Shown here: positions 1 through 12,839 of the stretch, piece after piece
Layout of the letters: the number at the start of each line of letters is the position of its first letter
Position numbering within the stretch: position 1 is the stretch's first letter
Source: a virus
Reading direction: 5' to 3' (one strand)
Length of the DNA: 58,693 nt
Virus record (IMG/VR): IMGVR_UViG_3300035698_012504
Span: 1-58,693 of that record
The notes under the pieces: model-generated
Told to the model about the DNA's origin: nothing
The model's input: the letters and a program-made list of their open reading frames with translations, nothing else
Databases searched by the model: none
Program-made: the position numbers and the translations under genes

Positions 1-18
1 AGAGGAATCTGTATATAG
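1..18 (+). CDS. 3' end of an upstream small-ORF array member (partial; ends ...RGICI*)
   Basis: The frame ends in RGICI followed by TAG. The same GGAGGA-spacer-ATG junction recurs throughout the array, so the array continues upstream of the window. Confidence 0.4.
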   Translation, partial: RGICI

Positions 19-26
19 GAGGATGT

Positions 27-389
27 ATGTTAGGATTAGACCCATATGTTATGGATCGATTAATTCCTATATTAAAAGATAATTTGTTCTTCAAGTATAT
101 AGTAGATAATATGGATTATAAGGAAATGGGGTGGGTTCATAATTCTATAACGTTTAGTTTCTCTACACTAGATGGCACCCTTGACATACTTATGGGAGTT
201 CATGATGAGGCAATAAGAATTGTAATCTATATGACATATTTGGATACTTTTTTAATAAAAGAAAACAATATACATTATGAAATTAGTATAAAATTCGCTG
301 ATGAGCATATGCCTGAAACAGGATTTACAATTGCTACTAATGGGTATATACATATATTAGACATTATAAGAAAAGGGATATCAATATGA
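27..389 (+). CDS. hypothetical small protein, tandem-array member (C-term RKGISI)
   Basis: 120-aa ORF with a GGAGGA Shine-Dalgarno sequence 6 nt upstream. Its stop overlaps the next start as ATGA. Confidence 0.5.
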   Translation: MLGLDPYVMDRLIPILKDNLFFKYIVDNMDYKEMGWVHNSITFSFSTLDGTLDILMGVHDEAIRIVIYMTYLDTFLIKENNIHYEISIKFADEHMPETGFTIATNGYIHILDIIRKGISI

Positions 390-808
390 TAATGGATATG
401 ATTGATACTGAAGTTAATAATGGATACCTTATTAGGCGTACATTAAATCAAACCTTAACGAAGAGTCAGATATTTAAATGGATAGCAACATATATAGAGG
501 TTGAATCGACTAGAAGTGTAAAAGTATATACTTCATTTAATAATATAGATATTATATTAACCGGCATGAAAGGACTTCATCACATAACAGTGAGTATTAC
601 TGGGAAAACTTATATAGTCGATAGATATAATCACCCTAGATTTGCACCAGATAAGATTAATCCTATTAATATTATTATGGAGTTTTATTATACAAGCCCC
701 CCTCATAAATTATTTGTTGTTAGAGATAGATGGTTTAAATACGATGTGACCCCTTCTCAACATTCAATAAATTTAACTGATATGTTAATGGGAGGAATCT
801 GTATATGA
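386..808 (+). CDS. hypothetical small protein, array member (C-term GGICI)
   Basis: ATGA-coupled at both ends. The junction is GGAGGAATCTGTATATGA. Confidence 0.5.
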   Translation: MIMDMIDTEVNNGYLIRRTLNQTLTKSQIFKWIATYIEVESTRSVKVYTSFNNIDIILTGMKGLHHITVSITGKTYIVDRYNHPRFAPDKINPINIIMEFYYTSPPHKLFVVRDRWFKYDVTPSQHSINLTDMLMGGICI

Positions 809-1116
809 TAGTTGATATGTTGACAATCGATTCATCGATGTTTGTATCCACTATGACAGAACACAGCTATAGTCTATACTTAGATAACTTAATTATATCG
901 TTTAGACCAGATAATCCTAGATATCCCCACCACCTCGTATTATCCCTCTGTTCATATGATTATGACGGAATAGATATAGAATTAATCAAATATGCAAACT
1001 TTCACTATGTTTATGAGGTAGATGTATTTGATAATATTACATTTGAACATGTAAATAATATATGTAAATCTATAATATGTACGTTGGATATTATCAGGAG
1101 AGGGATATCAGTATGA
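805..1116 (+). CDS. hypothetical small protein, array member (C-term RRGISV)
   Basis: ATGA-coupled, with the conserved junction. Confidence 0.5.
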   Translation: MIVDMLTIDSSMFVSTMTEHSYSLYLDNLIISFRPDNPRYPHHLVLSLCSYDYDGIDIELIKYANFHYVYEVDVFDNITFEHVNNICKSIICTLDIIRRGISV

Positions 1117-1535
1117 TGGGTTATGTCGGACCTATGTCAAAACAAGATAGGAAATATTTAAGCTCTTTCCCACATGATCTAAGAACTAATTTTATAGCAA
1201 GTACGCTAATACGATTTGGATTTAAAAGGAAAACAATTGAAGATATGGATAGGACTGTTTTAAATCTATCTAGTAGTTTTTATGTACCTGGATCAACATA
1301 TAGTAGAATTGTATCGATTCGTATTAATGGTAGAATGTGGAACGGATACACATATAGCCCTATACCTGAAGGGTATCATGCTAGAATAAAAATAACACTT
1401 AATGATGATGTCATGTATATAACGAGGCGAGATAGCCCGTATGTATACATATTTAGTGCTCCTCCGTGGCCTAAGAAAGGAAAAGATAAACAAATTCATT
1501 TGTTAAATATACTAAAGTTAGGAATCTGCATATGA
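1113..1535 (+). CDS. hypothetical small protein, array member (C-term LGICI)
   Basis: The start was moved to the ATG at 1113, which overlaps the previous TGA. The track's start at 1077 lies inside the preceding gene. Confidence 0.5.
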   Translation: MMGYVGPMSKQDRKYLSSFPHDLRTNFIASTLIRFGFKRKTIEDMDRTVLNLSSSFYVPGSTYSRIVSIRINGRMWNGYTYSPIPEGYHARIKITLNDDVMYITRRDSPYVYIFSAPPWPKKGKDKQIHLLNILKLGICI

Positions 1536-1759
1536 ATTACCCATCTATGAGGGAACTAAGTAGATATATAATGGATAATATAGCGATTGATGGATATAGA
1601 ATATCTAGCAATAGTAAAAATGGAATAATAGTTAATATGAATGAAACTAAGATCTCTATTTTAGATAGTGAACATTATTGGATTAGACTAGAGGATTATA
1701 ATAATAAACCTAAAAGAGTCTATCTCTTGGATATATTATCCCAAGGAGTAGTGATATGA
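1532..1759 (+). CDS. hypothetical small protein, array member (C-term QGVVI)
   Basis: ATGA-coupled. Confidence 0.5.
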   Translation: MNYPSMRELSRYIMDNIAIDGYRISSNSKNGIIVNMNETKISILDSEHYWIRLEDYNNKPKRVYLLDILSQGVVI

Positions 1760-1965
1760 AGCTTGCTCTGTTACGTGCTCTATATAATATTAATTTCACT
1801 GAGCACCTAATGGAGAATGGTGGTAATGATGTAATCTTTAAATATACAAAACCAGAAATTGATGATGATAGTAAACCATGTAGAGTATATGTTAGTGTCA
1901 CTGAGCCAAGCTATACTGGATTAGGTGGGATAAAGTGGCATTGGGACCACCAATTGATAGAGTAG
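1756..1965 (+). CDS. hypothetical small protein, array member lacking the usual tail (possible 5' half of a frameshifted gene)
   Basis: ATGA-coupled at its start. It ends ...HQLIE* without the G-x-x-I tail, and it overlaps the next ORF by 31 nt. Confidence 0.35.
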   Translation: MKLALLRALYNINFTEHLMENGGNDVIFKYTKPEIDDDSKPCRVYVSVTEPSYTGLGGIKWHWDHQLIE

Positions 1966-2126
1966 TTGTAGAACTATATCGAGATTGGGATCTATTAAGA
2001 TGTTCGTATATGTCTCTTGTAGGTATGAGTAAATTTGGATATATTTATCAGGTTACAGATGTTGATTTTAAAATCACTAAAGATATATTCATTATGGACG
2101 TCCTAAAGAGAGGAATAGTAATATGA
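1935..2126 (+). CDS. hypothetical small protein, array member (GTG start; C-term KRGIVI)
   Basis: GTG start inside the previous ORF. It may be the 3' half of one gene, 1756..2126, split by a frameshift. Confidence 0.35.
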   Translation: MALGPPIDRVVVELYRDWDLLRCSYMSLVGMSKFGYIYQVTDVDFKITKDIFIMDVLKRGIVI

Positions 2127-2329
2127 TCTTTGATAACGATAATAAGATACCATTTGAACATCAATCAAGAGTATATGAAGTTTATTTAGATGTCTATGAT
2201 ATGTTTCATGGTGGGCACGCAGTTCATCCCCTAATTATAGCAGGACTCCCATTTCATATTAACCCTTCCCACTTCAACTTTGGAAGAATAGCGAATTGGA
2301 TATATCATACAGGAGGAGTTGTAATATGA
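2123..2329 (+). CDS. hypothetical small protein, MIFDN(D/G)N subfamily (C-term TGGVVI)
   Basis: The N-terminus MIFDNDNKIPFE..VYEVY is shared with the ORFs at 3962, 6807, 7429 and 8556. Confidence 0.55.
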   Translation: MIFDNDNKIPFEHQSRVYEVYLDVYDMFHGGHAVHPLIIAGLPFHINPSHFNFGRIANWIYHTGGVVI

Positions 2330-2688
2330 GCGTCCAGCAAAGAGAAGAAGAACTATTCGATTTATTACAACGTTCAGGATTTAAGAAAAGAAGTCATCGC
2401 ACATCTATGATGGATTTTAGAGAAGAATCGTTTGATTTTGGTAACTATGTAGTAATTACTCTAAATGAAAATGGGTATATTGATGTGGAGATAGTAGATA
2501 AATTAGATATAGATAAATCGAGATACTACTATGTTAAAAGAATGGATAAAAGTAGTTTTAAAATGAGAATATATGCGAGTACTTATCCCGTGGCACCAGA
2601 ACGTATATTCGAATTTAAAATAGGAATAGATAAATTAGGAAAATTAATAAATACGTTTGATGTATTTAAACAAGGAGCAATATTATGA
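2326..2688 (+). CDS. hypothetical small protein, array member (C-term KQGAIL)
   Basis: The start was moved to the ATG at 2326, which overlaps the previous TGA. Confidence 0.5.
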   Translation: MSVQQREEELFDLLQRSGFKKRSHRTSMMDFREESFDFGNYVVITLNENGYIDVEIVDKLDIDKSRYYYVKRMDKSSFKMRIYASTYPVAPERIFEFKIGIDKLGKLINTFDVFKQGAIL

Positions 2689-2876
2689 TATACATAGATA
2701 CTATGGATCGTTATATAATTAAGAATTATGATGAGTATGTTAGTAAAATACATACAGACATACTTACCACAATCCAACATAAACTTAATAAAGGTTATGA
2801 TGAGTGGACACACTATGAATACTTTCTTAGTCGTCATCTTATAAGATCTATTAATAGCTCGAACATATGTAGTTGA
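2685..2876 (+). CDS. hypothetical small protein, array member
   Basis: ATGA-coupled at its start. There is no conserved tail, and a 26-nt spacer follows. Confidence 0.4.
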   Translation: MIYIDTMDRYIIKNYDEYVSKIHTDILTTIQHKLNKGYDEWTHYEYFLSRHLIRSINSSNICS

Positions 2877-2902
2877 ATATTTGCAAAACAAGGAGTTGTG
2901 GT

Positions 2903-3361
2903 ATGACTGAAAGAGGTATAATTAATGTATTAGATTCTTTACAATTCAACAACTCTAAAATATCTGGATCTTTTGCTGCCCCTATTAATGGAAGGGGATT
3001 TGCTCATATGAATCCAGGTCCTCCAACAGCACGATTTACATTCAGAGATAAAAATAGAATATCACTATCAACTACAATTTCAAAACCACAGATGATTGAT
3101 GTAGTATCAAGAAGAACCCATTTACTCGGAGGAATATCAAGACGTGGCCTAGTTGTAGAATGTTGGTTATACATACACTCTGATATAAATGATTATTATC
3201 TTTACTTTGTCGTACCATTTAATGAATCGACATTCACTGTTTATTTCACTCATAAATATAATGAGAAGGATAAAGATCATATTGATAGGGTTGGAACATT
3301 GTTTAGTAGATCAAAACCTATATTCATTCTAGATGTATTGAAGCGAGGAGTCGTGATATGA
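2903..3361 (+). CDS. hypothetical small protein, array member (C-term KRGVVI)
   Basis: The start was moved to the ATG at 2903, which has an AAGGAG Shine-Dalgarno sequence 7 nt upstream. Confidence 0.5.
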   Translation: MTERGIINVLDSLQFNNSKISGSFAAPINGRGFAHMNPGPPTARFTFRDKNRISLSTTISKPQMIDVVSRRTHLLGGISRRGLVVECWLYIHSDINDYYLYFVVPFNESTFTVYFTHKYNEKDKDHIDRVGTLFSRSKPIFILDVLKRGVVI

Positions 3362-3687
3362 TGTATACAGATGGATCAGATATGCTATATACATTTACAT
3401 TATCTGACGTAATAACTGGTGTAAAGGGTAGATCGTTTGATTTCATTATAAAAATAGATGAATACCCAGACTTTGTTAACAAAGGGCATACAAGATTAAA
3501 AAAAGTATCTCTTTATTTCTCAGTGTTTGGTAAAACATGTACTATTGATTGTATGTTAAACTCTAAATTCCCAAATATATTCTTATTTAATAATCTCCAT
3601 TATATTGTGTTAGTATATAACAATGGAGTTACTATGCCAACTTCAGTTAACACATTTAATATAATATCTCATGGTATCGTAATATGA
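3358..3687 (+). CDS. hypothetical small protein, array member (C-term SHGIVI)
   Basis: ATGA-coupled. Confidence 0.5.
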   Translation: MMYTDGSDMLYTFTLSDVITGVKGRSFDFIIKIDEYPDFVNKGHTRLKKVSLYFSVFGKTCTIDCMLNSKFPNIFLFNNLHYIVLVYNNGVTMPTSVNTFNIISHGIVI

Positions 3688-3965
3688 TTGTAGATACTAC
3701 TGATATGAAAGAGCTAGGTATTGGTGTATGTATCTCAGAAGGGTTATGGGTAGATACATTTCACACCAAAGATATAATGCTAACTTTATACCGTTATATA
3801 GATGGAGGATCAATTACATCCATAACTAGAGATCAGGCTGAATTGGTCAGACATCATGGTAGAGTATATACATTTGATTTATTTGATACGCATATTATAT
3901 CATCTGCTCATCATAATGGATTAATTACTCCACTCAACATGATAAAGAGAGGGATTGTAATATGA
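3684..3965 (+). CDS. hypothetical small protein, array member (C-term KRGIVI)
   Basis: ATGA-coupled. Confidence 0.5.
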   Translation: MIVDTTDMKELGIGVCISEGLWVDTFHTKDIMLTLYRYIDGGSITSITRDQAELVRHHGRVYTFDLFDTHIISSAHHNGLITPLNMIKRGIVI

Positions 3966-4189
3966 TATTTGACAACGGCAACGAGTTATTATTTGAAGAT
4001 TGTCTACCAGTGTATGATGTGTATTTTAAAATATCTGATGTTTTTGGTATACCCCTCCGTATTAAATTTCCCCTTCCAAAAAATAAATATGGAAATCCCA
4101 AAGTTTTATATTACCTTCCGACGCTCCCTAGAATACATATCTCAATAATATTTAAGTTGATATATTATAGTAAAGGAATTAATATATGA
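3962..4189 (+). CDS. hypothetical small protein, MIFDNGN subfamily (C-term SKGINI)
   Basis: MIFDNGNELLFEDCLPVYDVY. ATGA-coupled. Confidence 0.55.
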   Translation: MIFDNGNELLFEDCLPVYDVYFKISDVFGIPLRIKFPLPKNKYGNPKVLYYLPTLPRIHISIIFKLIYYSKGINI

Positions 4190-4488
4190 TATATGAAGAT
4201 ACTACAGATGCCCTAATGGGGGTGGAATATAATCCCGCAGAAGAATGTATTAAACTTAGCTATGGTAAGGAATCATTTTCACATGTAGATGTTGCTCTTT
4301 ATAGTGATGGTGGATTCGGATTTAGAATATCTAGATACCATTATATGAATATGTTGTCGTGTGTTACAGTAAAACGATCATACCGACAAAGGTTCGAATA
4401 TATATTTAAGACTGGATGCCATGAGCAATTTAGAAAGAAGCGATATGTTAATCTGATGGATATCTTCAACAGAGGAGTTCCTATATAG
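4186..4488 (+). CDS. hypothetical small protein, array member (C-term NRGVPI)
   Basis: ATGA-coupled. Confidence 0.5.
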   Translation: MIYEDTTDALMGVEYNPAEECIKLSYGKESFSHVDVALYSDGGFGFRISRYHYMNMLSCVTVKRSYRQRFEYIFKTGCHEQFRKKRYVNLMDIFNRGVPI

Positions 4489-4712
4489 TGTATGTAGATG
4501 TAAAAGTTAATATGATGCTTAGTGCCGTAATGTACAAAGATGCTGGAGATTTTCGCGACTTGTGTGTTCATAATTATACTAGACCACTAGCCATTAAACC
4601 AATTAGATATAGTGGATATGGTAGGGATATGGGTTATACAGCATACATTAGAGGTTTTAGATTTAAGGACGTATTTAACCAAGTAATGAAGAGAGGAATA
4701 GTATGGAAATAG
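4488..4712 (+). CDS. hypothetical small protein, array member (GTG start; C-term KRGIVWK)
   Basis: GTG at 4488 lies 10 nt after an AGAGGAG motif. Its stop overlaps the thyX start. Confidence 0.4.
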   Translation: MYVDVKVNMMLSAVMYKDAGDFRDLCVHNYTRPLAIKPIRYSGYGRDMGYTAYIRGFRFKDVFNQVMKRGIVWK

Positions 4713-5485
4713 TAGAACCGAAAGTATTTTTAATAGCAGAAACTAAATTAGATAATGAGGGCCTTCTTGAATATCTCAAGGATCTTAACGTATTAGATTA
4801 TAGCTGGAGTGCCCCGTCTGATTCAGAGGCGCTATGTGAGATGATGGGAAGATTGTGTTATAGATCATTCAAGCCTGGTCTTAATCCCAATGTTACAAAA
4901 GTAAGGACCGGTAATGATGTATACTTAAAGAACATTATAAACACTGGGCATGGGTCAGTTTTAGAACATGCTAGTGTAAGTTTTATATTCAAAGACGTAT
5001 CTCGAGTATTCACGCATGAGCTTGTTCGACATAGATCAGGGGTAGCTATATCTCAAGAGTCTCTTAGATTCGTTAGGTTAGATAAGCTTAGTGCGTATGT
5101 CCCGATACAGATAGAAGAGAATGAAGAAGCAATGTCTTTGTTCATGGATACGTTTGATAAACTTGAAGAGGTGCAAAAACAACTCGCTGACATTTACGAT
5201 ATAGAGAACACTGATGACTTTGCTAGGAAGAAAGAATTAACCTCTGCATTCAGGAGAGTTGCCCCTATTGGATTAGCAACTACCATAGGGTGGACATGTA
5301 ATATGCGAGCACTAAGACACATAATCGAATTAAGAACTAGCCCACATGCAGAGATAGAACTTAGAGTAGTATTCGCAAAAGTATTTGATATAGTGAAAGA
5401 TAAATACCCTAATATATTTGGAGATTATAAAGTAGAGATGGTAGATGGTATACCGTGGGTGCATACTACGGAGGAGAAGATCTAA
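4703..5485 (+). CDS. thyX: flavin-dependent thymidylate synthase ThyX
   Basis: Carries the ThyX signature RHRSGVAISQESLRFV (RHRxxxxxQxSxR) and is 260 aa. Confidence 0.9.
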   Translation: MEIVEPKVFLIAETKLDNEGLLEYLKDLNVLDYSWSAPSDSEALCEMMGRLCYRSFKPGLNPNVTKVRTGNDVYLKNIINTGHGSVLEHASVSFIFKDVSRVFTHELVRHRSGVAISQESLRFVRLDKLSAYVPIQIEENEEAMSLFMDTFDKLEEVQKQLADIYDIENTDDFARKKELTSAFRRVAPIGLATTIGWTCNMRALRHIIELRTSPHAEIELRVVFAKVFDIVKDKYPNIFGDYKVEMVDGIPWVHTTEEKI

Positions 5486-5501
5486 CATAAGGTAGTGAAT
5501 T

Positions 5502-5702
5502 ATGATATATGTTACTGGATGTATAAACTCAACGTTTTCTGAAAAGTTGATACATGAATCATTTAATAACATCTTAATATTATTAGACTTCATAGATGAT
5601 GATGATTATATGAATTATATCCTTGAGTATGGTATTAAGATTTATCCAATTTGTCCCATTCGATTTGAACTCTATTTAATTATAGACACTCCCCTCAGAT
5701 AG
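5502..5702 (+). CDS. hypothetical small protein
   Basis: 66-aa ORF directly downstream of thyX. Confidence 0.35.
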   Translation: MIYVTGCINSTFSEKLIHESFNNILILLDFIDDDDYMNYILEYGIKIYPICPIRFELYLIIDTPLR

Positions 5703-5828
5703 ATATTCATTTCACACAAAGTCCAAAAATATCTGTAGTGTATACTAGTAAAGGTATACGTGTACCAGTCATTAGCTTTCATTTAATTGATATATTTAAG
5801 AGAGGGATAGCCATATAAAGGAGATAGT

Positions 5829-6077
5829 ATGCACATAGATGAAGACGGATTATACAATGAAGTTGCTCGTTATATTAGAACAAGGAATGATTTATCATTA
5901 GGACTTACTGTTATGAATATAACAAATGGTAAATTATTAATAGTAGTAGTTAATGACCCATCTAATAGAGGAACGCGGTTTAATCATGTAGATAATCTTA
6001 AAGAAATACTACCCAAAGTAATTCATTATTTCATATTAGTGTATATGGATGTTATGAAGGAAGGAATAAATATCTAA
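5829..6077 (+). CDS. hypothetical small protein, array member (C-term KEGINI)
   Basis: Preceded by AGAGGGATAGCCATATAAAGGAG. This restarts the array after a 126-nt spacer. Confidence 0.5.
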   Translation: MHIDEDGLYNEVARYIRTRNDLSLGLTVMNITNGKLLIVVVNDPSNRGTRFNHVDNLKEILPKVIHYFILVYMDVMKEGINI

Positions 6078-6451
6078 TGGATATGTATATGAGAACTCCT
6101 TTAATAAGACCATGTAGAGAAGAATATGATCATAGTTTTAGTACGAGAATATGTCACGCATGGATAAGAACTAAAACTAATTCATTTATTCACTTCCAAG
6201 TATCTGTTTCTCCAACTAACTCTACAGACAAATTCAAGCTGATGATGTTTTTGACAACAGATGATAAAATCAATGAAATAGGGACACGGGCATGGGTAGA
6301 AGAAAAACAAATATTAAGTATAGGAGCATCTAGGATGTTTGAATTATACTATGGGACCAGACTACAAAATCCTCTTATCATTCAGGGAATTTTTAAAAAA
6401 GGGGTATGTATCAATTCGAATGATTTTTTAAACGGAGGAATCGATATATGA
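6077..6451 (+). CDS. hypothetical small protein, array member (C-term NGGIDI)
   Basis: TAATG-coupled. Confidence 0.5.
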   Translation: MDMYMRTPLIRPCREEYDHSFSTRICHAWIRTKTNSFIHFQVSVSPTNSTDKFKLMMFLTTDDKINEIGTRAWVEEKQILSIGASRMFELYYGTRLQNPLIIQGIFKKGVCINSNDFLNGGIDI

Positions 6452-6810
6452 TATTTATATCTCCACCAGAAGATGGATTATATTCAGACTCAATTGTTAG
6501 GATAGAGCTTGTACCACACTCATCTAATCGCAGATATAAATTTATTGCTAATATTCCATCTAAACTAGATGATGTTTTATGTTCAATTTACGTCAGAAAA
6601 AAATCCCCATGGTGCCGAGACGATATAATAATAATATCATTCAAGCATCATAGATGTTATTTTCAAATATCTACTTTTAGTGGGTATGAACCAACTAAAG
6701 TATTTACTAAACCTAAAGTACAAACACTAATAACTAAACAGGGATGCAAATCAGAAGAAACTTATAGGGATATGGGTAGAATGTTTAGATGTGGAGGAAT
6801 CTCAATATGA
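6448..6810 (+). CDS. hypothetical small protein, array member (C-term CGGISI)
   Basis: ATGA-coupled. Confidence 0.5.
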   Translation: MIFISPPEDGLYSDSIVRIELVPHSSNRRYKFIANIPSKLDDVLCSIYVRKKSPWCRDDIIIISFKHHRCYFQISTFSGYEPTKVFTKPKVQTLITKQGCKSEETYRDMGRMFRCGGISI

Positions 6811-7037
6811 TATTCGACAACGGTAATAAATTGTTATTTAAAGATTGCTCGTTAGTATATGACTATCTTAAATTATATAATTACATTCACCTTCACCCTC
6901 ACCTTCACCCTCACCTTCACCTTCACCCTCACCCTCACCCTCACCTTCGCCCTCACTCCCGCCTTCCCCTTCACCCTCACCTTCAACCCGAAAAATTATT
7001 TAACTGGGTGTATAATAAAGGAGGAGTTGTGATATGA
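6807..7037 (+). CDS. hypothetical His/Pro/Leu-repeat protein, MIFDNGN subfamily (C-term KGGVVI)
   Basis: MIFDNGNKLLFKDCSLVYDYLKLY followed by HLHPHLHPHLHLHPHPHPHLRPH. It is a near-identical paralog of the ORF at 8556. Confidence 0.55.
   Translation: MIFDNGNKLLFKDCSLVYDYLKLYNYIHLHPHLHPHLHLHPHPHPHLRPHSRLPLHPHLQPEKLFNWVYNKGGVVI
6886..6988. repeat. hexanucleotide microsatellite (CACCTT/CACCCT)n, about 16 units, inside the CDS at 6807
   Basis: Direct reading shows cac ctt cac cct cac ctt ... repeated about 16 times. Confidence 0.9.
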
Positions 7038-7432
7038 TATTTGATACGACGTGTGAATATAACATGTATCAGTATGCATATGGAATGACTACACGTAAGA
7101 ATACAGTGACTAGAGAACATACTAGAATTACTATCCGTTCTCTTAGAGGTTATTGTTTCACATTCGAAAATCTAAGACATCCTCCGAAAGAATATGAAGG
7201 GCATTTTATATCGAGGGACGTTGAAGAGTTTTTAATAATTTATAAAGTAGATAGGATTACAGATGTTTATTACGATTTTATAAGAATAGGGAAAGTAGTG
7301 AGAGGGAAGAATCATTTAGTACGAAATGGAAAGAGAGAAATAATAATAACAACTGGTGTAAATCATACTACATCTGTTCCCAATGTATGTACAATTATAT
7401 TGGCGCTTTGTAGGAAAGGAACAGTCATATGA
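7034..7432 (+). CDS. hypothetical small protein, array member (C-term RKGTVI)
   Basis: ATGA-coupled. Confidence 0.5.
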   Translation: MIFDTTCEYNMYQYAYGMTTRKNTVTREHTRITIRSLRGYCFTFENLRHPPKEYEGHFISRDVEEFLIIYKVDRITDVYYDFIRIGKVVRGKNHLVRNGKREIIITTGVNHTTSVPNVCTIILALCRKGTVI

Positions 7433-7647
7433 TATTTGATAATGATAATAAAATGTTGATCGGAGATCCTACTAAAGCTTATAATACATATTGTTATATT
7501 AATACTCACACATGGGCAATTCAATATCTTAGTATGCATCTTCATACTAAATATCTTAATCTTACTCTTTTCCCACATTCTCGATTCCATCCTAGATTAG
7601 GAACCACATACAAATGGATAATTGAAAATAAAGGGGTCGTGATATGA
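7429..7647 (+). CDS. hypothetical small protein, MIFDNDN subfamily (C-term NKGVVI)
   Basis: MIFDNDNKMLIGD. ATGA-coupled. Confidence 0.5.
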   Translation: MIFDNDNKMLIGDPTKAYNTYCYINTHTWAIQYLSMHLHTKYLNLTLFPHSRFHPRLGTTYKWIIENKGVVI

Positions 7648-8006
7648 TATTTGAATCGGTTAACATTGATTTGTTTTGGAGAGATGGATTACATTTGAGA
7701 ACATTAAAACATGGTTATACCCACTTCTTTAGAGAAACTTACGTTGATAAAATATTTATGCATGATACATTTATAGGAGATTTATTACTCGAATGTATCC
7801 TTGTCAACCATATAGATTATATAAGAATACGAATTCCAACATTTCCATATAGATCCATGACATATAAATTTGATATGGGTACCGAGATACTCATTCGATT
7901 TGGATCTGGTAATATATTCTGTACGCAGACAAGTAAAAAAGAAGAAAAAATTAAGTGGTTTCAATTTGGAACTTTAGATATCATGACTAGAGGGGTAGTT
8001 ATATGA
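7644..8006 (+). CDS. hypothetical small protein, array member (C-term TRGVVI)
   Basis: Its MIFESV N-terminus is shared with the ORF at 9960. Confidence 0.5.
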   Translation: MIFESVNIDLFWRDGLHLRTLKHGYTHFFRETYVDKIFMHDTFIGDLLLECILVNHIDYIRIRIPTFPYRSMTYKFDMGTEILIRFGSGNIFCTQTSKKEEKIKWFQFGTLDIMTRGVVI

Positions 8007-8251
8007 TTTATGTATATGATGCATCAGATTCATTACAAGGTATAAGATTAGATGATATTGAATTTTATATATCATCGGATGCAGTATGTGATATGTGTAA
8101 GAGAACAGATATTATGTGTGATAATCAATGTGCTATTTACTTTAATTCATGGCCATTTACAGAGGTGACCAAAGAGTTTTATGTTCCACCACGACCAACC
8201 ATCCCTCTTATGTATAATTGGGTGAGGAGACAGATAGGAGCTGTTGTATGA
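8003..8251 (+). CDS. hypothetical small protein, array member (C-term QIGAVV)
   Basis: ATGA-coupled. Confidence 0.5.
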   Translation: MIYVYDASDSLQGIRLDDIEFYISSDAVCDMCKRTDIMCDNQCAIYFNSWPFTEVTKEFYVPPRPTIPLMYNWVRRQIGAVV

Positions 8252-8559
8252 TATATTTTACAAATGACACCCAGGGCGGGATGCAACAACATAATATAGA
8301 TGTCTACGTTAAAGATGTGTTACAGTTTTATAGACAAATCTATGATTTTGAACCTTACTATAATATACTAGATCCTATATTAAAGTATGCCCCAATATGT
8401 AGATATACTAGAGATGCTATATTATTTACACAAGAGGTATCCCCTGGTCTTTTTGGGGTTGTGATTAAAGAAGAACATCAAGAATTTCATGGAGTTAAAG
8501 TTACATTGTCTTTTATATGTGGATGGGTAATGCATCAACAACAAGGAGTAATTATATGA
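8248..8559 (+). CDS. hypothetical small protein, array member (C-term QQGVII)
   Basis: The start was moved to the ATG at 8248, which overlaps the previous TGA. Confidence 0.5.
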   Translation: MIYFTNDTQGGMQQHNIDVYVKDVLQFYRQIYDFEPYYNILDPILKYAPICRYTRDAILFTQEVSPGLFGVVIKEEHQEFHGVKVTLSFICGWVMHQQQGVII

Positions 8560-8786
8560 TGTTTGATAACGGTAATAAATTGTTATTTAAAGATTGCTCG
8601 TTAGTATATGACTATCTTAAATTATATGATTACATTCACCTTCACCTTCACCTTCACCCTCACCTTCACCCTCACCTTCACCTTCTCCCTCACCTTCTCC
8701 CTCACCCCCGCCTTTCCCTTCACCCTCACCTTCAACCCGAAAAATTATTTAACTGGGTGTATAATAGAGGAGGAGTAATAATATAA
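8556..8786 (+). CDS. hypothetical His/Leu/Pro-repeat protein, MIFDNGN subfamily (paralog of 6807)
   Basis: MMFDNGNKLLFKDCSLVYDYLKLYDYIHLHLHLHPHLHPH... The ends are near-identical to 6807..7037 and the repeat count differs. Confidence 0.55.
   Translation: MMFDNGNKLLFKDCSLVYDYLKLYDYIHLHLHLHPHLHPHLHLLPHLLPHPRLSLHPHLQPEKLFNWVYNRGGVII
8634..8738. repeat. hexanucleotide microsatellite (CACCTT/CACCCT/CTCCCT)n, second copy
   Basis: Direct reading. The unit order and count differ from the 6886..6988 copy. Confidence 0.9.
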
Positions 8787-8881
8787 TGTATGTAGATTGT
8801 ATGGATAAGGATATTTATCCAGAAGCCATTTAATTAGGATGTTCAAATACATATGATAAGAGTGGAGATACATGCGATCTA

Positions 8882-9139
8882 ATGTTTTGCAACTTCAGTG
8901 AAAAACATCCATATGAATTTCTTATGAAATTAGGAATATCTGATATAAGAATAAAAATATCATATCCAGTTGGAGAGCGAAGAGTAGTTAATTTAATGAT
9001 ACTTGGACTAAAGAGCGGTGATGGAATATATGTAAAGTTCAGCGCACTGAAGACAATAACAATTATGTCTGAAGATGGGGAACGCAAATGGAATGATTAC
9101 ATGGGTTGGTTTTTACAGCAAGGTATATATATTAAATAG
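8882..9139 (+). CDS. hypothetical small protein (C-term QQGIYIK)
   Basis: 85-aa ORF that follows a 95-nt spacer containing the small hairpin GGATAAGGATATTTATCC. Confidence 0.4.
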   Translation: MFCNFSEKHPYEFLMKLGISDIRIKISYPVGERRVVNLMILGLKSGDGIYVKFSALKTITIMSEDGERKWNDYMGWFLQQGIYIK

Positions 9140-9692
9140 TGACAGAAGGAATCTATTTCACACAACCAAAAAGGAGAGAAGTGTGAAGAATATTCATTGG
9201 CCCAAGGCGTGCATCTATATTTTTCTTTTACTGTTTTTATTACTTGCTAATGGGGAAATTGTAGGCGAGTTGAAAAGACCTATAATAGAATCCCAATTGA
9301 GTGCTGCGATAACAATTCCAGTTGTTATATTAGGTTTAAGTCAGAGCATATTCTTGGGATGGCTCATCGGGGCCATCGTCTGCTCATCTATAGGATTTAT
9401 GAATAATCCAATTGAACGTGTAATTGAAGAATTTGATAAAAAAGGAATACGAGCATATTATACAAATATGATATCTTTTTACGGGCTCATTATATTAACA
9501 CCATATAATTTATTTCTGTACTTTTGGCCAGTAGACGCAACTACTACGTTTATATTTGGAAACATTATGTTTTGGGCTGTATCTAGTATTATAATTTATA
9601 AGAATCTATGGGAGAACGTGAAGATTGACAACTTGGTTAAGGAGTGGTTCTTATGCAAGCCCTATCAGATATGTTTAAAATCTCAAAGCTAG
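9075..9692 (+). CDS. small integral membrane protein (4 to 5 predicted TM segments)
   Basis: Hydrophobic stretches IYIFLLLFLLLA, ITIPVVILGLSQSIFLGWLIGAIV and FYGLIILTPYNLFLYFWP. The start is uncertain; a GTG at 9183 follows AAGGAGAG. Confidence 0.5.
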   Translation: MGNANGMITWVGFYSKVYILNSDRRNLFHTTKKERSVKNIHWPKACIYIFLLLFLLLANGEIVGELKRPIIESQLSAAITIPVVILGLSQSIFLGWLIGAIVCSSIGFMNNPIERVIEEFDKKGIRAYYTNMISFYGLIILTPYNLFLYFWPVDATTTFIFGNIMFWAVSSIIIYKNLWENVKIDNLVKEWFLCKPYQICLKSQS

Positions 9693-9949
9693 CAGTCGCT
9701 GTATTCATTCTAATAAATGTACTACATGTATTGATGTTTGTTGTAGCTATACCTATAGTAGTTATGTTGTACACTAAACTTAAGCTTATGGGAACTATCC
9801 CAGAGGATGGGATTATACCACTTATAGTATTATTTGGGGGTGGTGCTACTGTTGGCTTAGCATTTTCGTCTATGAAAAAGAAAATTTTAGAGTGTGTGGT
9901 ACCTGAATCTATGCATAATGAAAATAACCCGATAGTGGATGAACTATAA
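9653..9949 (+). CDS. small membrane protein (2 to 3 TM segments)
   Basis: AAGGAG Shine-Dalgarno sequence, then ATG at 9653. Hydrophobic stretches LAVAVFILINVLHVLMFVVAIPIVVML and IIPLIVLFGGGATVGLAF. Confidence 0.5.
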   Translation: MQALSDMFKISKLAVAVFILINVLHVLMFVVAIPIVVMLYTKLKLMGTIPEDGIIPLIVLFGGGATVGLAFSSMKKKILECVVPESMHNENNPIVDEL

Positions 9950-9959
9950 GGATAAATCC

Positions 9960-10289
9960 ATGATATTTGAATCTGTTAAATCTATTAGCCCATTTAATAG
10001 TAGTAATATAACTAAATACCCATTTGGAGAATCTTTAGTAACATGTCAAGTAGATTATAATCTTAGAAAGAAGTTTAGGATAGGGATAACTGTAATAAAT
10101 CATAACACATATTATAAAGAAAAGGTAATTGTGATTTCCTATTTCCAAACAGATGGTAAGATTAGAAGTGCTGAAATAGGGCCTATACAAAAATCATCAT
10201 TTAGATCCTATTTTACCACTAAAATTATTACACATGGTGAAATCATTAATGCTTTTCTTAAACTGACGGGTAATGGAATAAGTATATGA
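9960..10289 (+). CDS. hypothetical small protein, array member (MIFESV...; C-term GNGISI)
   Basis: Start at the ATG at 9960 after AAGGA. Ends in the conserved junction. Confidence 0.5.
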   Translation: MIFESVKSISPFNSSNITKYPFGESLVTCQVDYNLRKKFRIGITVINHNTYYKEKVIVISYFQTDGKIRSAEIGPIQKSSFRSYFTTKIITHGEIINAFLKLTGNGISI

Positions 10290-10414
10290 TAGTAGATGGG
10301 TTAATCATGGGATCCAACTCATCAGAAGTTAGACTTCAAAAAATGATAATATCTGGTAGCCTCAAACCAGGACAAGAATATATATCTATTATTGATCTTA
10401 CAAAAAAAGAGTAG
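10286..10414 (+). CDS. hypothetical 42-aa peptide, array member (MIVDG...)
   Basis: ATGA-coupled to the ORF at 9960. Too short to appear in the ORF track. Confidence 0.3.
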   Translation: MIVDGLIMGSNSSEVRLQKMIISGSLKPGQEYISIIDLTKKE

Positions 10415-10482
10415 TATTTTTCATTAGATTTTATGGTGCGCTGGTCTCAGGGCCATTTGATCCACATCAATCCTATATCTCG

Positions 10483-10611
10483 GTGAGCAGATACATAGAG
10501 ATCGTAGATGTAGACGGTGGATTTAAATTAAAATATATACGAGAAAAATTTAAAACACTATTGATTGGAAATCTATACATTATGATATCGAAACGAGGGA
10601 TTCTAATATAA
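10483..10611 (+). pseudogene. decayed array member (GTG start, no Shine-Dalgarno sequence; ends SKRGILI*)
   Basis: 42-codon frame that ends with the array's tail motif immediately before AAAGGAGAGAAAATG of the next gene. Confidence 0.25.
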
Positions 10612-10621
10612 AGGAGAGAAA

Positions 10622-11548
10622 ATGACAGGCCGTAATGTAGATATCGCGGAACTATTATCTAGAGTAAAATCAACACTCTCTACTAATGTAGATGAGACTA
10701 TTGACATTCCTACCATTGCTGAACCAGAACCACCGAGGGCAAAGAAGTCTACAATTTCTAGAATTAAAGATAGTGGGTTATCCATAATATTAAATCCAAA
10801 GAATATATTGGGTCGATATAGAGTTAGACCAAATCATAGATTGTCTGCTTTGGGAGTAGATGCCGAGGATATACCATCTGTTAATAAATTTGAAAGAATA
10901 GATAGTATTTTTAGAAATGATAATGAGCACGATAGAATTGATATTGAGCTACTTCAATTAAAGATGGATCTCGCAGCAGGTACAGTAAAAGCAGTTGAAC
11001 CCAAATCATCAGAGAAGGTGATATATTTATCCCCTACTGTCCCTAGTGAACTTGATAGCTCATTATACTCATATGATGATCAAGAAGATCAATTAATGGA
11101 ATTTTCAAAATACTATTGCGAATGCGCCATTGAGAATGGATGGAAGATATTATTAAATACATCAAGTGCTGATCCAATAATATGGAGAAAACTTAGAGAT
11201 ATGTTTGGAGATAATATAATCCTAGCAGATGGTAATAGTCTGCGTCAAAGTGTAGTAGATAATGGATGTAAAATATTATTCATTGCAGGAGGAAGTACAG
11301 GAGCAGTTAACGATATTGAACGGATATATGATGAATGGAATACATATCAGTGTGGAAGCACAATTATATATCATGCCGTTTCATTTGGCGGAGTATATGA
11401 TGTGAATGGCGAAATAATTTATTCTCTTGGAGGAGAAGGAGTAGAATATATAAGGGACATTACAGATTCTCGTCATAGATCTCCAATGAGTAGAGCTATT
11501 ATGAGTAAGTTTTTTGAATTTGTCACAGAAAGATACTCTAGGTTTTAG
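10622..11548 (+). CDS. hypothetical protein with a C-terminal Rossmann-like segment (GCKILFIAGGSTGAVNDIER)
   Basis: 308-aa ORF with an AAGGAGAG Shine-Dalgarno sequence. Its GC content is visibly higher than the flanking sequence. Confidence 0.5.
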   Translation: MTGRNVDIAELLSRVKSTLSTNVDETIDIPTIAEPEPPRAKKSTISRIKDSGLSIILNPKNILGRYRVRPNHRLSALGVDAEDIPSVNKFERIDSIFRNDNEHDRIDIELLQLKMDLAAGTVKAVEPKSSEKVIYLSPTVPSELDSSLYSYDDQEDQLMEFSKYYCECAIENGWKILLNTSSADPIIWRKLRDMFGDNIILADGNSLRQSVVDNGCKILFIAGGSTGAVNDIERIYDEWNTYQCGSTIIYHAVSFGGVYDVNGEIIYSLGGEGVEYIRDITDSRHRSPMSRAIMSKFFEFVTERYSRF

Positions 11549-11560
11549 GAGAGAAACGCA

Positions 11561-12328
11561 ATGAGAAGGAAAGAAGTGTTTGTCATAGGGCTTGGAAATC
11601 CTGGGAACGCGGCCTCAATAGATTCTAGGCATAACGTTGGACAACTTGCCGTCGGTAGAGCACTTGCAATATATGGTGACTTACGTCCTCCAGGATCTGA
11701 GTCTCATAGGGACCGAATACAAAATGAAGATATTAAATTAAAATTGAGAAGAGCACCTATGTCAGTAAAAGATACAAGTATATTAAAATTTGGAGAGAAT
11801 CGAAGATCATATAAATATTACAGATCAACCGTGCTGCTCTATGGAATGACCATCAATTTTATAGAACCGGTTAATGTATATATGAACAGTTCTGGAAGAT
11901 TTATACGTGCGCTTAGATTAGATACAGATGAGTTTCTAGAAAATTTACTTATTATTCATGATGATATAGATTTACCAATTGGACGAGTGAGATTCCGTAC
12001 TGGGGGAGGGGACGGGGGACACAATGGAATAAAGAATATACGAGTAAATTTAGGAGATGATTTCTCTAGATTAAAAGTAGGAGTTGGAAGACCAACAGAT
12101 GATACAGTAGAACAATATCTAACTAGAGAAATGTCACTTAAACATAGGAAGCATATTAATAAGGTAATAGATACTATATTGAAAAAGTGTATGCTCGATT
12201 GGGCATTATATGGAACAGCGCATTGTTCTGTTAAGTACAACAAACTATTTGTTAATGGAAGTGGTAATGTTACTACATGGAAGAAACATCAAAAGGAGCT
12301 TGAAGAACTTGTGCGAAAAGAAGTCTGA
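11561..12328 (+). CDS. pth: peptidyl-tRNA hydrolase (Pth family) with an internal ~40-aa insertion
   Basis: GLGNPG...SRHNVG (Pth motif 1), VYMNSSG, IIHDDIDLPIGRVRFRTGGGDGGHNGIKNI (compare E. coli [28 protein letters not shown]) and LKVGVGRP. Confidence 0.85.
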   Translation: MRRKEVFVIGLGNPGNAASIDSRHNVGQLAVGRALAIYGDLRPPGSESHRDRIQNEDIKLKLRRAPMSVKDTSILKFGENRRSYKYYRSTVLLYGMTINFIEPVNVYMNSSGRFIRALRLDTDEFLENLLIIHDDIDLPIGRVRFRTGGGDGGHNGIKNIRVNLGDDFSRLKVGVGRPTDDTVEQYLTREMSLKHRKHINKVIDTILKKCMLDWALYGTAHCSVKYNKLFVNGSGNVTTWKKHQKELEELVRKEV

Positions 12329-12839
12329 AGACACACCAACTAATGCATTAAAAGAAATGATTGAAAAACGCGGGGAGATATCTGGAATGGCCCAAAAGAG
12401 CTCCAATGTAATAAGAATAATGATGTCTCTATTGGCATCAAGAGCATTGGATGTTTCAAATTCTATGGCAGCCCTTCATGCAGTGAATGATTTGTATGAC
12501 GGCGACACAGAAGAAGCTATGAAAAGTAGACGGAATGAGTATGTGAAACAATATCTATTAGCAGTTAAGTCATTTAAATCATTAGAAAGAAAAATACATG
12601 ACGATGTTGCTCCAACATTTTTTGATAATGTTGCAGTGCTTTTTCCAGATGAAATATTCACGTTGTTCCGAGATGAGATGTTAGTATATAAGGAAAGAGA
12701 ATTAGGGTTACCTGTTGACCCATCAGAAGTCCCATCACTTGATGAAATGAGAGCATTCTTTAATGTATTTCCAGAAGAGTCATTACGAAGTAGTATAAAT
12801 GATAGTTTTAGTCCACTTACTGGATCAGATGAAGATTAA
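12210..12839 (+). CDS. hypothetical protein (true start probably near 12358)
   Basis: The ORF overlaps the 3' end of pth. The internal start MIEKRG at 12358 lies after the pth stop. Confidence 0.4.
   Translation: MEQRIVLLSTTNYLLMEVVMLLHGRNIKRSLKNLCEKKSEDTPTNALKEMIEKRGEISGMAQKSSNVIRIMMSLLASRALDVSNSMAALHAVNDLYDGDTEEAMKSRRNEYVKQYLLAVKSFKSLERKIHDDVAPTFFDNVAVLFPDEIFTLFRDEMLVYKERELGLPVDPSEVPSLDEMRAFFNVFPEESLRSSINDSFSPLTGSDED

Follow-up and report, generated by a model that had tools for sequence, protein, structure and literature searches.

The DNA analysed (the window, 58,693 nt) belongs to an uncultured large phage whose AT-rich genome carries T4-like replication genes and which probably infects a member of Hydrogenedentota. 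Positions 1-10611 and ~950 nt upstream form an 11.6-kb same-strand chain of ~35 tiny orphan genes. Within 1-10611 every gene lies on the + strand, and neighbours overlap or are separated by gaps of 0-10 nt (Table 1). More than 35 ORFs had been counted here in an earlier note; the window holds ~32 genes of the array, and ~37 is reached only as ORF pieces, when six members disrupted by frameshift or nonsense mutation are counted as fragments. The same note expected the array to continue upstream, since the window opens with ...RGICI*. It does, but only for the ~950 nt, which contain three further members, one of them cut by an in-frame stop. The array starts ~70 nt downstream of a strong terminator (L001:8924-8962, 17-bp stem), with the first member at L001:9032. 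All other contigs are 98-100% identical and represent a single genotype.

Stop and start codons overlap as ATGA at 22 junctions of the array; a few junctions read TAATG or TAGTG instead. A scan for ATGA overlaps with ≥ 30 open codons on either side gave 21 in 386-10286 and 8 in the remaining 48 kb, and the 22nd is found at 2903, behind a premature stop. Only three of the 8 overlaps outside the array (19174, 35470, 54473) are among the 52 control gene starts. The ATGA frequency is 22/32 for array junctions, with the denominator of ~32 taken from our own count, compared to 3/52 for control junctions (Fisher p = 9.5e-10). Open frames of ≥ 25 codons in the whole window were scanned for the ending G[IVAT].[IVL]*: 26 of 26 on the + strand are within 389-10611 and none is in the other 48 kb, while the - strand has one. 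Five genes start with MIFDN[GD]N (2123, 3962, 6807, 7429, 8556) and two with MIFESV (7644, 9960), in agreement with the sub-families described before, and the frame 10483-10611 ends SKRGILI* as stated.

Table 1. Array members and further genes at window positions 1-10611 (asterisk, stop codon).
Feature	Position	Strand	Remark
3' end of upstream member (L001:9657-9992), ...KRGICI*	1..18	+	next gene with own SD GGAGGA after stop
class-1 member, 120 aa, tail IHILDIIRKGISI	27..389	+	
class-1 member, 140 aa, MIMD..., tail LTDMLMGGICI	386..808	+	ATGA overlap at both ends
class-1 member, 103 aa, MIVD..., tail TLDIIRRGISV	805..1116	+	
class-1 member, 140 aa, tail LLNILKLGICI	1113..1535	+	
class-1 member, 75 aa, tail LLDILSQGVVI	1532..1759	+	
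frameshifted class-1 member, tail IMDVLKRGIVI	1756..2126	+	frames overlap at 1905-1965
class-2 member, MIFDNDN sub-family, 68 aa, tail NWIYHTGGVVI	2123..2329	+	
class-1 member, 120 aa, tail TFDVFKQGAIL	2326..2688	+	
member MIYIDTMD..., in-frame TGA 2874-2876	2685..2906	+	original end ...KQGVVV* overlaps ATG at 2903
class-1 member, 152 aa, tail ILDVLKRGVVI	2903..3361	+	
class-1 member, 109 aa, tail TFNIISHGIVI	3358..3687	+	sole GGT Gly codon
class-1 member, 93 aa, MIVDTTD..., tail PLNMIKRGIVI	3684..3965	+	
class-2 member, MIFDNGN, 75 aa, tail YYSKGINI	3962..4189	+	
class-1 member, 100 aa, tail LMDIFNRGVPI	4186..4488	+	variant junction TAGTG, 1-nt overlap
class-1 member, 74 aa, altered tail ...VMKRGIVWK*	4488..4712	+	its AGAGGA is the SD for thyX
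thyX (flavin-dependent thymidylate synthase), host-like, non-family	4703..5485	+	inserted exactly at junction
frameshifted class-1 member (overlap 5669-5702), tail LIDIFKRGIAI*	5502..5818	+	separate SD after stop
class-1 member, 82 aa, tail YMDVMKEGINI	5829..6077	+	TAATG overlap
member, 124 aa, tandem double tail ...IFKKGVCI-NSNDFLNGGIDI*	6077..6451	+	
member, 120 aa, MIFISPP..., tail MFRCGGISI	6448..6810	+	
class-2 member, MIFDNGN, 76 aa, (H[LP])n repeat	6807..7037	+	D1 copy A (6805-7043)
member, 132 aa, MIFDTT..., tail LALCRKGTVI	7034..7432	+	
class-2 member, MIFDNDN, 72 aa, tail KWIIENKGVVI	7429..7647	+	
class-1 member, 120 aa, MIFESV..., tail TLDIMTRGVVI	7644..8006	+	
class-2 tail member, 82 aa, tail NWVRRQIGAVV	8003..8251	+	
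class-2 tail member, 103 aa, tail GWVMHQQQGVII	8248..8559	+	
class-2 member, MMFDNGN	8556..8786	+	D1 copy B (8554-8792), 92% nt identity to copy A
member MYVDCMD..., in-frame TAA 8831-8833, tail-like end GWFLQQGIYIK*	8786..9139	+	
two hydrophobic non-family proteins, ~199 and ~98 aa, start codons uncertain	9093..9949	+	embedded in array
class-1 member, 109 aa, MIFESV..., tail FLKLTGNGISI	9960..10289	+	own SD after upstream TAA
last member, frameshift at A7 run 10402-10408, tail IMISKRGILI*	10286..10611	+	separate SD for 10622

Conservation at the junctions

Start-anchored logos were compared between 21 array junctions and 52 control starts. The information content was 15.9 vs 1.9 bits upstream (-33..-1) and 5.5 vs 0.8 bits downstream (+4..+18), which is more than GGAGG plus ATG. 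The conserved junction is thereby confirmed, although the ~25 nt given previously are too short: the module comprises ~42 nt (14 codons) upstream of ATGA and ~10 nt downstream. Its Shine-Dalgarno (SD) core starts 11-12 nt upstream of the ATG in 20 of 22 array junctions, whereas controls spread over 4-17 nt. These data support a real module which is specific to the array and has a fixed SD-to-ATGA geometry. SD sequences and ATGA overlaps are both common in prokaryotic operons (PMC6728339), and the genome is AT-rich; that the pattern is merely a strong SD plus ATGA of independent origin at each boundary, or results from chance or base composition, is nevertheless scarcely credible. The logo and the tail endings confined to the array on the + strand already contradict it, as do the fixed frame and spacing and the conserved D/N, hydrophobic and basic positions 5-14 codons upstream of the stop.

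Nearly all members carry a shared 14-residue C-terminal tail of at least two classes, namely phi-x-phi-phi-[DN]-phi-phi-[KR]-x-G-phi-x-I (class 1) and [NG]-W-phi-x3-4-G-phi-phi-[IV] (class 2). All 26 of 26 tails have the Gly and a hydrophobic end. The N-terminal consensus is M-I-[FYV]-[DE]. According to the earlier note, the SD forces the tail, which holds for part of it. Codon -5 encodes nine different residues, yet 24/26 junctions have A at its third base (p = 4e-9) and 24/26 a purine at its second. The tail Gly codon is GGR in 25/26 compared to ~0.64-0.66 in codon usage (p = 3e-4), and the same-codon fraction at -6..-4 is 0.538 vs 0.382, an excess reached in 13/2000 simulations. Nucleotide-level constraint is confined to the x-Gly codons (SD), where it is clear, and to the final NNA codon (ATGA). 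At positions -14..-7, the same-codon fraction is 0.458 vs 0.492 expected for random synonymous choice; at -3..-2 it is under expectation, i.e. synonymous codons are over-dispersed. Along the junction, information content varies with a period of three bases and is weak at third positions. Contrary to the forcing claim, the tail is also kept at three junctions where the SD of the next gene follows the stop (window 1-26, 5818, 10611). Random synonymous codons and the retention of the tail ahead of genes with an SD of their own mark it as a protein motif. The codon evidence favours selection on the protein, beyond the SD buried inside it, as was suggested secondarily before, and the shared tail would then be a functional protein element. 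The conservation of the junction is best read as a superposition of nucleotide-level and amino-acid-level constraints, the latter on the 14-residue tail and also on the N-terminal consensus of the next product.

No homologues of the array family were found among 1.84 billion representative proteins, and no known signal or family matched the tail in database searches. Leave-one-out HMMs did not detect homology between the bodies of members, and a cross-validated motif test for related bodies gave a Fisher p = 0.29; the earlier description of the bodies as unrelated or weakly related agrees with this. Since body homology is undetected, the data fit a single family that has diverged as well as unrelated bodies with common termini. 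AlphaFold models of two members had low confidence (pLDDT 57.6 and 47.2). They contain a short helix, which covers the LDIIRK-type segment in both, followed by the Gly and the hydrophobic end; a fold search gave no match.

A sharper version of the protein-level reading takes the tail as a specific sorting or turnover tag, which seems rather improbable. Such a tag might direct packaging or ejection, as a C-terminal counterpart to the capsid-targeting sequence found in T4 internal proteins, or act as a C-terminal degron or adaptor-binding peptide setting the lifetime of an early effector set. The amino acids conserved with random codons, the invariant Gly and hydrophobic end, the retention where the SD function is not needed and the freely varying bodies would fit such a tag. 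C-terminal recognition peptides of AAA+ proteases resemble basic residues followed by a hydrophobic C-terminus, an analogy which may point to turnover. However, no partner, protease or structural gene linked to the tail is present in the window, no known signal was matched, the helix lies over the LDIIRK-type segment in both low-confidence models, and the same conservation would be expected if the C-terminus were a buried structural element in a single diverged fold. The T-even internal-protein (IP) locus is a variable phage locus of polymorphic small proteins with unrelated bodies and a shared capsid-targeting sequence; this signal is N-terminal, has ~10 residues and ends in a prohead-protease site. 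Small polymorphic proteins with unrelated bodies and a short conserved terminal peptide are common to both systems, but the long conserved element of the array is C-terminal and the N-terminal one has ~4 residues. The array peptides have no L/I-x-E cleavage motif, and packaging would be a putative role.

Transcription and proposed translational coupling

Neither promoter-like sites (62 found vs 78.6 expected) nor terminator-like sites (2 vs 4.4) are enriched in the array, and no recurrent stem-loops or inverted repeats were found in it. The array may be transcribed as a single polycistronic unit, starting just past the strong terminator, with no internal promoter- or terminator-like signals. 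An analogy to the PeSL (promoter-early stem-loop) of T4-type hyperplastic regions, drawn before, is not borne out in its defining parts. PeSL are intergenic, ~100 bp long, and contain a sigma-70-type promoter and a terminator stem-loop, so that cassettes are transcriptionally insulated (PMC2839356, PMC4122927); lacking promoters, terminators and recurrent stem-loops, the module in the array is therefore not a PeSL. Both are repeated short modules that flank orphan ORFs of large phages in variable regions, provide expression signals to the following ORF, and show gain or duplication of cassettes with breakpoints in the module. In contrast to PeSL, the array module is coding (tail of gene n, head of gene n+1), would link expression at translation, and exists in copies which are ~48% identical and conserved mainly as amino acids.

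RBS windows at the junctions are structured like the interior of coding regions and more than free-standing starts (-10.0 vs -6.8 kcal/mol, p = 1e-4). For ATGA pairs, strict coupling is typical and the SD often contributes (PMC6728339). As proposed earlier, translational coupling would be the natural reading of the fixed SD-to-ATGA geometry. Since the SD (RAGGR) is placed at 11-12 nt within the last codons of the upstream gene, it would be expected to hold the ribosome terminating on UGA, which may then restart on the overlapping AUG. Under strict coupling, premature stops and frameshifts in six members would silence downstream cistrons, which implies de novo initiation at the SD or tolerated polarity. 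The 4-nt overlap, the SD within the upstream gene and an RBS which is not intrinsically open are shared with known ATGA-coupled cases, but those mostly involve two genes or a short operon, often with products that are subunits of the same complex (PMC6728339, PMC10666635, PMC12548453), whereas the array has 22 consecutive-type junctions with one stereotyped geometry and a conserved peptide. Peptide and geometry exceed what coupling requires.

Copying, capture and decay of cassettes

The cassette at 6805-7043 is duplicated at 8554-8792 (D1, 92% identical) in a non-adjacent slot. Identity runs from ATATGAT to GGAGGAGT, and both breakpoints are within junctions. Another repeat pair (D9, 2104-2206 and 3943-4045) starts 19 nt upstream of the ATG; in the pair D17 (7644 and 9960), identity falls off sharply past MIFESV. 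The thyX product aligns collinearly over its full length with ThyX of Hydrogenedentota (63-68% identity), and the ATG of the gene lies ~8 nt downstream of AGAGGA in the upstream member, which supports thyX as a foreign, probably host-derived (Hydrogenedentota-like) gene captured exactly behind the family SD. Copying or insertion of whole cassettes at junctions is shown by one family cassette and by the host thyX. The proposed duplication or capture of cassettes together with the junction stands to this extent; the junctions, however, are poor substrates for homologous recombination, as pairs are 48% identical on average and 68% at most, with a longest exact run of 16 nt.

All these events would suit a junction that acts mainly as a recombination linker at the DNA level, PeSL- or integron-like but within coding sequence. 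With it the phage could remove, copy and take up unrelated ORFs while keeping the coupled chain in frame, and the shared termini would be the hitch-hiking linker. The presence of at least two tail classes, membrane proteins and thyX in one chain and the bodies without detectable homology point in the same direction, and T4-type recombination is able to use short homologies (PMC2839356). Yet we consider such a linker unlikely. Frequent recombination or gene conversion between junctions should lead to the opposite of the randomised synonymous sites found in the tail, with no shared-codon excess at -14..-7 and a deficit at -3..-2. The low identity of junction windows also stands against it, no structural variants of the array occur among the independent contigs compared, and no relatives displaying shuffling are at hand.

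The explanation we hold to be probable, with some reservation, is a birth-and-death family of orphan genes in a variable region of the phage, which is translated by termination-reinitiation and shares a functional protein tail. The array would be a lineage-specific multigene array, and the region probably an early one. The tail may serve as a common docking, assembly or handling signal joined to variable bodies, which would give specificity as expected of host-takeover or anti-defence effectors. Whole cassettes would be copied or inserted, breakpoints lying within junctions, and decay would proceed by frameshift and nonsense mutations. In large DNA viruses, multigene families with 'accordion'-type evolution grow and decay in variable genome regions, and their members are recognisable along the whole protein. 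Like these, the array lies in a variable region, holds tandem or dispersed paralogues that diverge fast, and contains pseudogenes as well as a recent duplicate beside old ones, but its members are recognisable by their termini only and are welded through overlapping stop and start codons.

Junction pattern and limits of the array

The chain of small orphan genes on the + strand at positions 1-10611, whose members share a C-terminal tail, had been described in the earlier note as an array of coupled ORFs; this observation was confirmed, and its interpretation was supported in part. The G+C content of the window is ~31%, every substantial ORF is encoded on the + strand, and from 27 to 10611 this strand is packed with small ORFs. 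ATGA stop/start overlaps flanked on both sides by 30 or more open codons were found 21 times in 386-10286 versus 8 times in the other 48 kb, three of the latter being control gene starts (as controls, the 52 gene starts of the window outside the array were used). One more overlap, the 22nd, lies at 2903 and is masked by a premature stop. With ~32 array junctions by our own count, ATGA is present at 22 of 32 versus 3 of 52 controls (p = 9.5e-10); TAATG occurs twice and TAGTG once. Neighbouring array genes share 4 nt or 1 nt or are separated by gaps of at most 10 nt. All 26 open frames of the + strand which end in G-[IVAT]-x-[IVL]-stop lie within 389-10611, and none was found elsewhere on this strand.

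A start-anchored logo of 21 array junctions contains 15.9 bits at positions -33 to -1 and 5.5 bits at +4 to +18, compared to 1.9 and 0.8 bits for the 52 control starts. The core of the Shine-Dalgarno sequence (SD) begins 11-12 nt 5' of the ATG in 20 of 22 array junctions, whereas the controls are spread over 4-17 nt. Given this excess of information upstream of the start and the fixed SD spacing, the junctions do not resolve to GGAGG plus ATG alone, the outcome which the earlier note had named as contrary to its claim. The conserved module proposed there is real, but longer than stated, comprising 14 codons before the stop and ~4 after the start. It sits within coding sequence.

The same DNA is carried by a metagenomic contig of 74.8 kb (L001) and by several shorter contigs, and 10 kb upstream of the window were taken from L001. 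The array runs on upstream of the window as had been expected, but just for ~950 nt. Its first member starts at L001:9032, ~70 nt past a very strong intrinsic terminator (L001:8924-8962; 17-bp stem and T run), and the motif is absent from the genes on L001 farther upstream than this member. In total, ~35 genes in ~11.6 kb form the array, with a 3' limit at 10611, and within the genome it is a compartment with sharp borders. A 9-codon ORF is located between the terminator and the first member. The genes at L001:1-8500, upstream of the terminator, are by eye more G+C-rich and have neither the tail nor the ATGA pattern.

Upstream ends of array members, disrupted members and phage genes of replication and nucleotide metabolism located downstream of the array. 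Coordinates without prefix are window positions; those with the prefix L001 are positions on the contig.
Feature	Position	Remarks
End of upstream array member	L001:9319	IHILNILKRGICI
End of upstream array member	L001:9660	FNVLRGGICI
End of upstream array member	L001:9992	LNVLKRGICI
Frameshifted array member	1756/1935	
Frameshifted array member	5502/5738	
Frameshifted array member	10286/10483	
Array member with in-frame stop	2874	
Array member with in-frame stop	8831	
Array member with in-frame stop	L001:9412	
Peptidyl-tRNA hydrolase	11561-12328	950 nt after the array; Pfam PF01195, E = 6e-34
Class II ribonucleotide reductase	40573-43803	Downstream of the array; interrupted by an intein with LAGLIDADG domain
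Homing endonuclease gene		Downstream of the array, near the ribonucleotide reductase; DUF7487/HNH-type, 613 aa; 46574-48415
Clamp loader		Downstream of the array; best matches 33-36% identity, full length, to jumbo phage and T4-like cyanophage gp44; one partial match 45%
5'-3' exonuclease		Downstream of the array
Glycosyltransferases		Downstream of the array

Ribosome-binding and protein constraints at the junctions

Two classes of tails were distinguished, in which phi denotes a hydrophobic residue. Class 1 (~18 members) follows phi-x-phi-phi-[DN]-phi-phi-[KR]-x-G-phi-x-I and class 2 (~8 members, five MIFDN[GD]N genes among them) follows [NG]-W-phi-x3-4-G-phi-phi-[IV]. Glycine is found at codon -4, counted back from the stop, in 26 of 26 tails.

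Codon choice within the motif was judged against the window's own codon usage. Codon -5 encodes nine different amino acids, yet its third base is A in 24 of 26 tails (p = 4e-9), and its second base is a purine, likewise in 24 of 26. The glycine codon is GGA or GGG in 25 of 26 cases versus a fraction of ~0.64-0.66 in the codon usage (p = 3e-4). For pairs with the same residue at codons -6 to -4, codon identity was 0.538 versus 0.382 expected, a value reached in 13 of 2000 simulations. This bias is a Shine-Dalgarno constraint. The respective values were 0.458 versus 0.492 expected at codons -14 to -7 and 0.283 versus 0.394 expected, i.e. below expectation, at codons -3 to -2; the information content of the junction follows a three-base period in which the third positions are weak. 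Because codon identity is at or below expectation and this period is present, the residues at -14 to -7 and -3 to -2 are conserved as amino acids, for long enough to allow synonymous randomisation.

The tail is also intact at three junctions which have a separate post-stop SD for the next gene (1-26, 5818 and 10611), as well as at the TAGTG and TAATG junctions. At the N-terminus, the codons of M-I-[FYV]-[DE] are shared slightly more often than expected (0.656 versus 0.532), with isoleucine encoded by ATA in 14 of 17 cases, and MIFESV is retained at 9960 despite the lack of an overlapping stop there. According to the codon-level and retention evidence, the junction is therefore an SD/ATGA signal superposed on conserved protein termini. 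The array represents an unusually clean natural case of a ribosome-binding signal and a protein motif in the same nucleotides, and the two constraints are separable codon by codon.

A variant junction, ATATA(G/A)TGTATGTAGAT, is present at 4486-4499 and 8784-8797 (82% identity over 28 nt); here, TAG or TAA overlaps GTG or ATG by one base and the N-terminus is (M/V)YVD. The gene at 6077-6451 has two tandem tail motifs at its end (6395-6451), ...IFKKGVCI-NSNDFLNGGIDI followed by the stop, which looks like the loss of a stop codon and subsequent fusion to a nearly deleted next cassette.

Gene bodies, cassette copying and decay

In pairwise BLAST comparisons, the members have little similarity past the tails, except for the MIFDN[GD]N sub-family and a few class 1 pairs, e.g. 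27-389 and 805-1116 (E = 5e-4, small database). Leave-one-out HMMs with the termini removed performed no better than shuffles. An (H/Y)Y hairpin derived from a MAFFT alignment was dropped, since neither the leave-one-out HMMs nor a cross-validated PSSM supported it beyond a hand-picked subgroup (Fisher p = 0.29). Two AlphaFold runs with paralogue alignments gave beta-meander models of low confidence (pLDDT 57.6 and 47.2), in which a short helix spans the LDIIRK-type segment. Foldseek against viral models returned no match below E = 0.01, and a PDB profile search found nothing. These HMM, motif and fold results are compatible both with a single diverged fold and with unrelated bodies.

For 20 array proteins, no match above noise was obtained in Pfam and PHROGs. 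An exhaustive HMM search with an 18-member profile against 1.84 billion representatives returned 13 proteins, all with lengths equal to those of query members. Word-indexed profile searches for relatives, and megablast and tblastn against phage records, returned none beyond the same phage, whose other contigs are 98-100% identical. The 308-aa protein of the flanking gene 10622-11548 matched itself only. No matches were found for thyX in IMG/VR or for the MIFDNGN alignment in IMG/VR and the JGI metagenomes. The junction DNA pattern gave single chance matches in IMG/VR, two matches in L040 also being due to chance, and a degenerate tail-plus-ATGA DNA pattern gave 0 and 10 chance matches in IMG/VR and metagenomes, respectively, and no arrays. 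Judged from these searches, the array genes are an orphan family of one sampled genotype. It is a large family, with ~26 tail-bearing members, for which 1.84 billion representative proteins yielded no homologue, and the shared tail could be used as bait for binding partners of its members.

The cassette 6805-7043 recurs five genes apart at 8554-8792 with 92% identity. Since the identity begins in ATATGAT and stops in GGAGGAGT, both within junctions, the copied segment corresponds to precisely one cassette, with a junction at either end. In a second, weaker pair (2104-2206 and 3943-4045), the similarity likewise begins ahead of the ATG, by 19 nt. Both duplicated MIFDNGN genes contain a hexanucleotide repeat, TTCACC/CTCACC (~16.7 copies; 6886-6985 and 8635-8734), which encodes (H-[LP])n. 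A contig from another sample (L131) is 12 nt shorter at this repeat, which seems to be polymorphic in copy number.

The product of the thyX gene at 4703-5485 has 63-68% identity to ThyX of Candidatus Hydrogenedentota MAGs; the proteins are equally long (260 aa) and collinear over their entire length. The ATG of thyX is ~8 nt downstream of the AGAGGA of the upstream member, the tail of which is altered to ...KRGIVWK before the stop. From collinearity and position, it follows that a host gene was taken up at the exact site of a junction and makes use of an SD of the family. As thyX is a recent-looking host-derived gene, its sequence suggests that the phage may infect Hydrogenedentota, a barely studied candidate phylum.

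Average identity between junctions is just 48%, exact runs do not exceed 16 nt, and synonymous codons are not shared more often than expected except in the SD; frequent homologous exchange between junctions is therefore unlikely. The observed cassette events fit rare recombination at microhomology.

Six array members are disrupted, three by frameshifts and three by in-frame stops. Reassignment of a stop codon was ruled out, as both TGA and TAA occur among the in-frame stops, and 22 junctions use TGA as their functional stop. Programmed frameshifting of the three one-base-shifted members was rejected as well: a slippery run was found only at 10402-10408 (A7), and all three were taken as decay. 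The last member consists of two frames (10286-10414 and 10483-10611), and this A7 run is located exactly within their 19-nt overlap; it could be a homopolymer indel, a site of transcriptional slippage or a -1 frameshift site.

Translation of the array and relation to known systems

In 1-12500, 62 promoter-like sites were found versus 78.6 +/- 8.7 in shuffles, none recurring at junctions, using a sigma-70-like search which may not match the host's promoter type. Inside the array, 2 terminator-like sites were found versus 4.4 expected, and no recurrent inverted repeats or stem-loops were found at the junctions. Because neither promoters nor terminators are enriched internally and junction stem-loops are lacking, the data fit one long transcript beginning past the upstream terminator. 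An RNA element at the junctions was ruled out, there being no notable Rfam matches, no tRNAs and no junction stem-loops.

Tested bacterial and archaeal ATGA pairs are nearly always strictly coupled, often with a contribution of the SD, and independent initiation is blocked by local structure (PMC6728339). The ribosome binding sites at the array junctions are as structured as random coding positions and more strongly structured than free-standing starts (-10.0 versus -6.8 kcal/mol; p = 1e-4). Therefore, the array is most likely translated by termination-reinitiation. [quoted passage not shown] The six premature stops, however, weigh against a strict dependence of downstream on upstream translation; hence, ribosomes must also be able to initiate de novo at the embedded SDs.

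The array is best described as an orphan multigene family that undergoes gene birth and decay and belongs to a variable region of the phage, its genes being welded into a chain, which we infer to be translationally coupled, with a shared protein tail. It is kin to phage variable-region gene families and to termination-reinitiation operons.

The earlier note had likened the array to PeSL cassettes, which are defined by an intergenic promoter and a terminator stem-loop (PMC2839356). Both have a repeated module which flanks orphan ORFs and provides expression signals, but the analogy fails as both defining features are absent from the array. The PeSL is an intergenic element of ~100 bp, whereas the array module is coding and its genes overlap or are at most 10 nt apart. 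[quoted passage not shown] Recombination between PeSL copies shuffles orphan ORFs, as seen from differences between close relatives and from mini-circles; in the single genotype of the array, one cassette duplication with junction breakpoints and the thyX capture may be of a similar kind.

The capsid-targeting sequence of T-even internal proteins is an N-terminal leader of ~10 residues ending at a prohead-protease site. As in the array, a terminal peptide is attached to variable bodies, but the long conserved element of the array is C-terminal and its N-terminal conservation is limited to M-I-[FYV]-[DE]. Integron gene cassettes are marked by attC-type imperfect inverted repeats at their ends and by an integrase; unlike these, the array has no recurrent inverted repeats. 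Neither an integrase nor a reverse transcriptase, as a diversity-generating retroelement would have, was seen in the part of the window's proteins that was scanned, and the bodies of the array genes are not alignable. The array proteins belong to no described family according to Pfam, PHROGs and PDB profile searches, none of which gave a significant match.

A bolder and rather improbable reading is that the junction is a dual-purpose "coding linker", consisting of C-terminal tag, embedded SD, ATGA and N-terminal cap, and that the array is a translation-level cassette platform which recruits, duplicates and discards effector genes. Placing an ORF between two linkers would then suffice both for its translation within the chain and for its tagging with a shared handling signal, and the thyX capture and the junction-to-junction copy would be two snapshots of the platform at work. 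Should the tail prove to be a tag for sorting or turnover, or the junction a platform for cassettes, the array would be a translation-level counterpart to the promoter-terminator cassettes of T4-type phages; if neither applies, it would be a striking but ordinary fast-evolving gene family in a phage variable region.

The phage-encoded peptidyl-tRNA hydrolase may possibly be tied to peptidyl-tRNA drop-off on many short cistrons.
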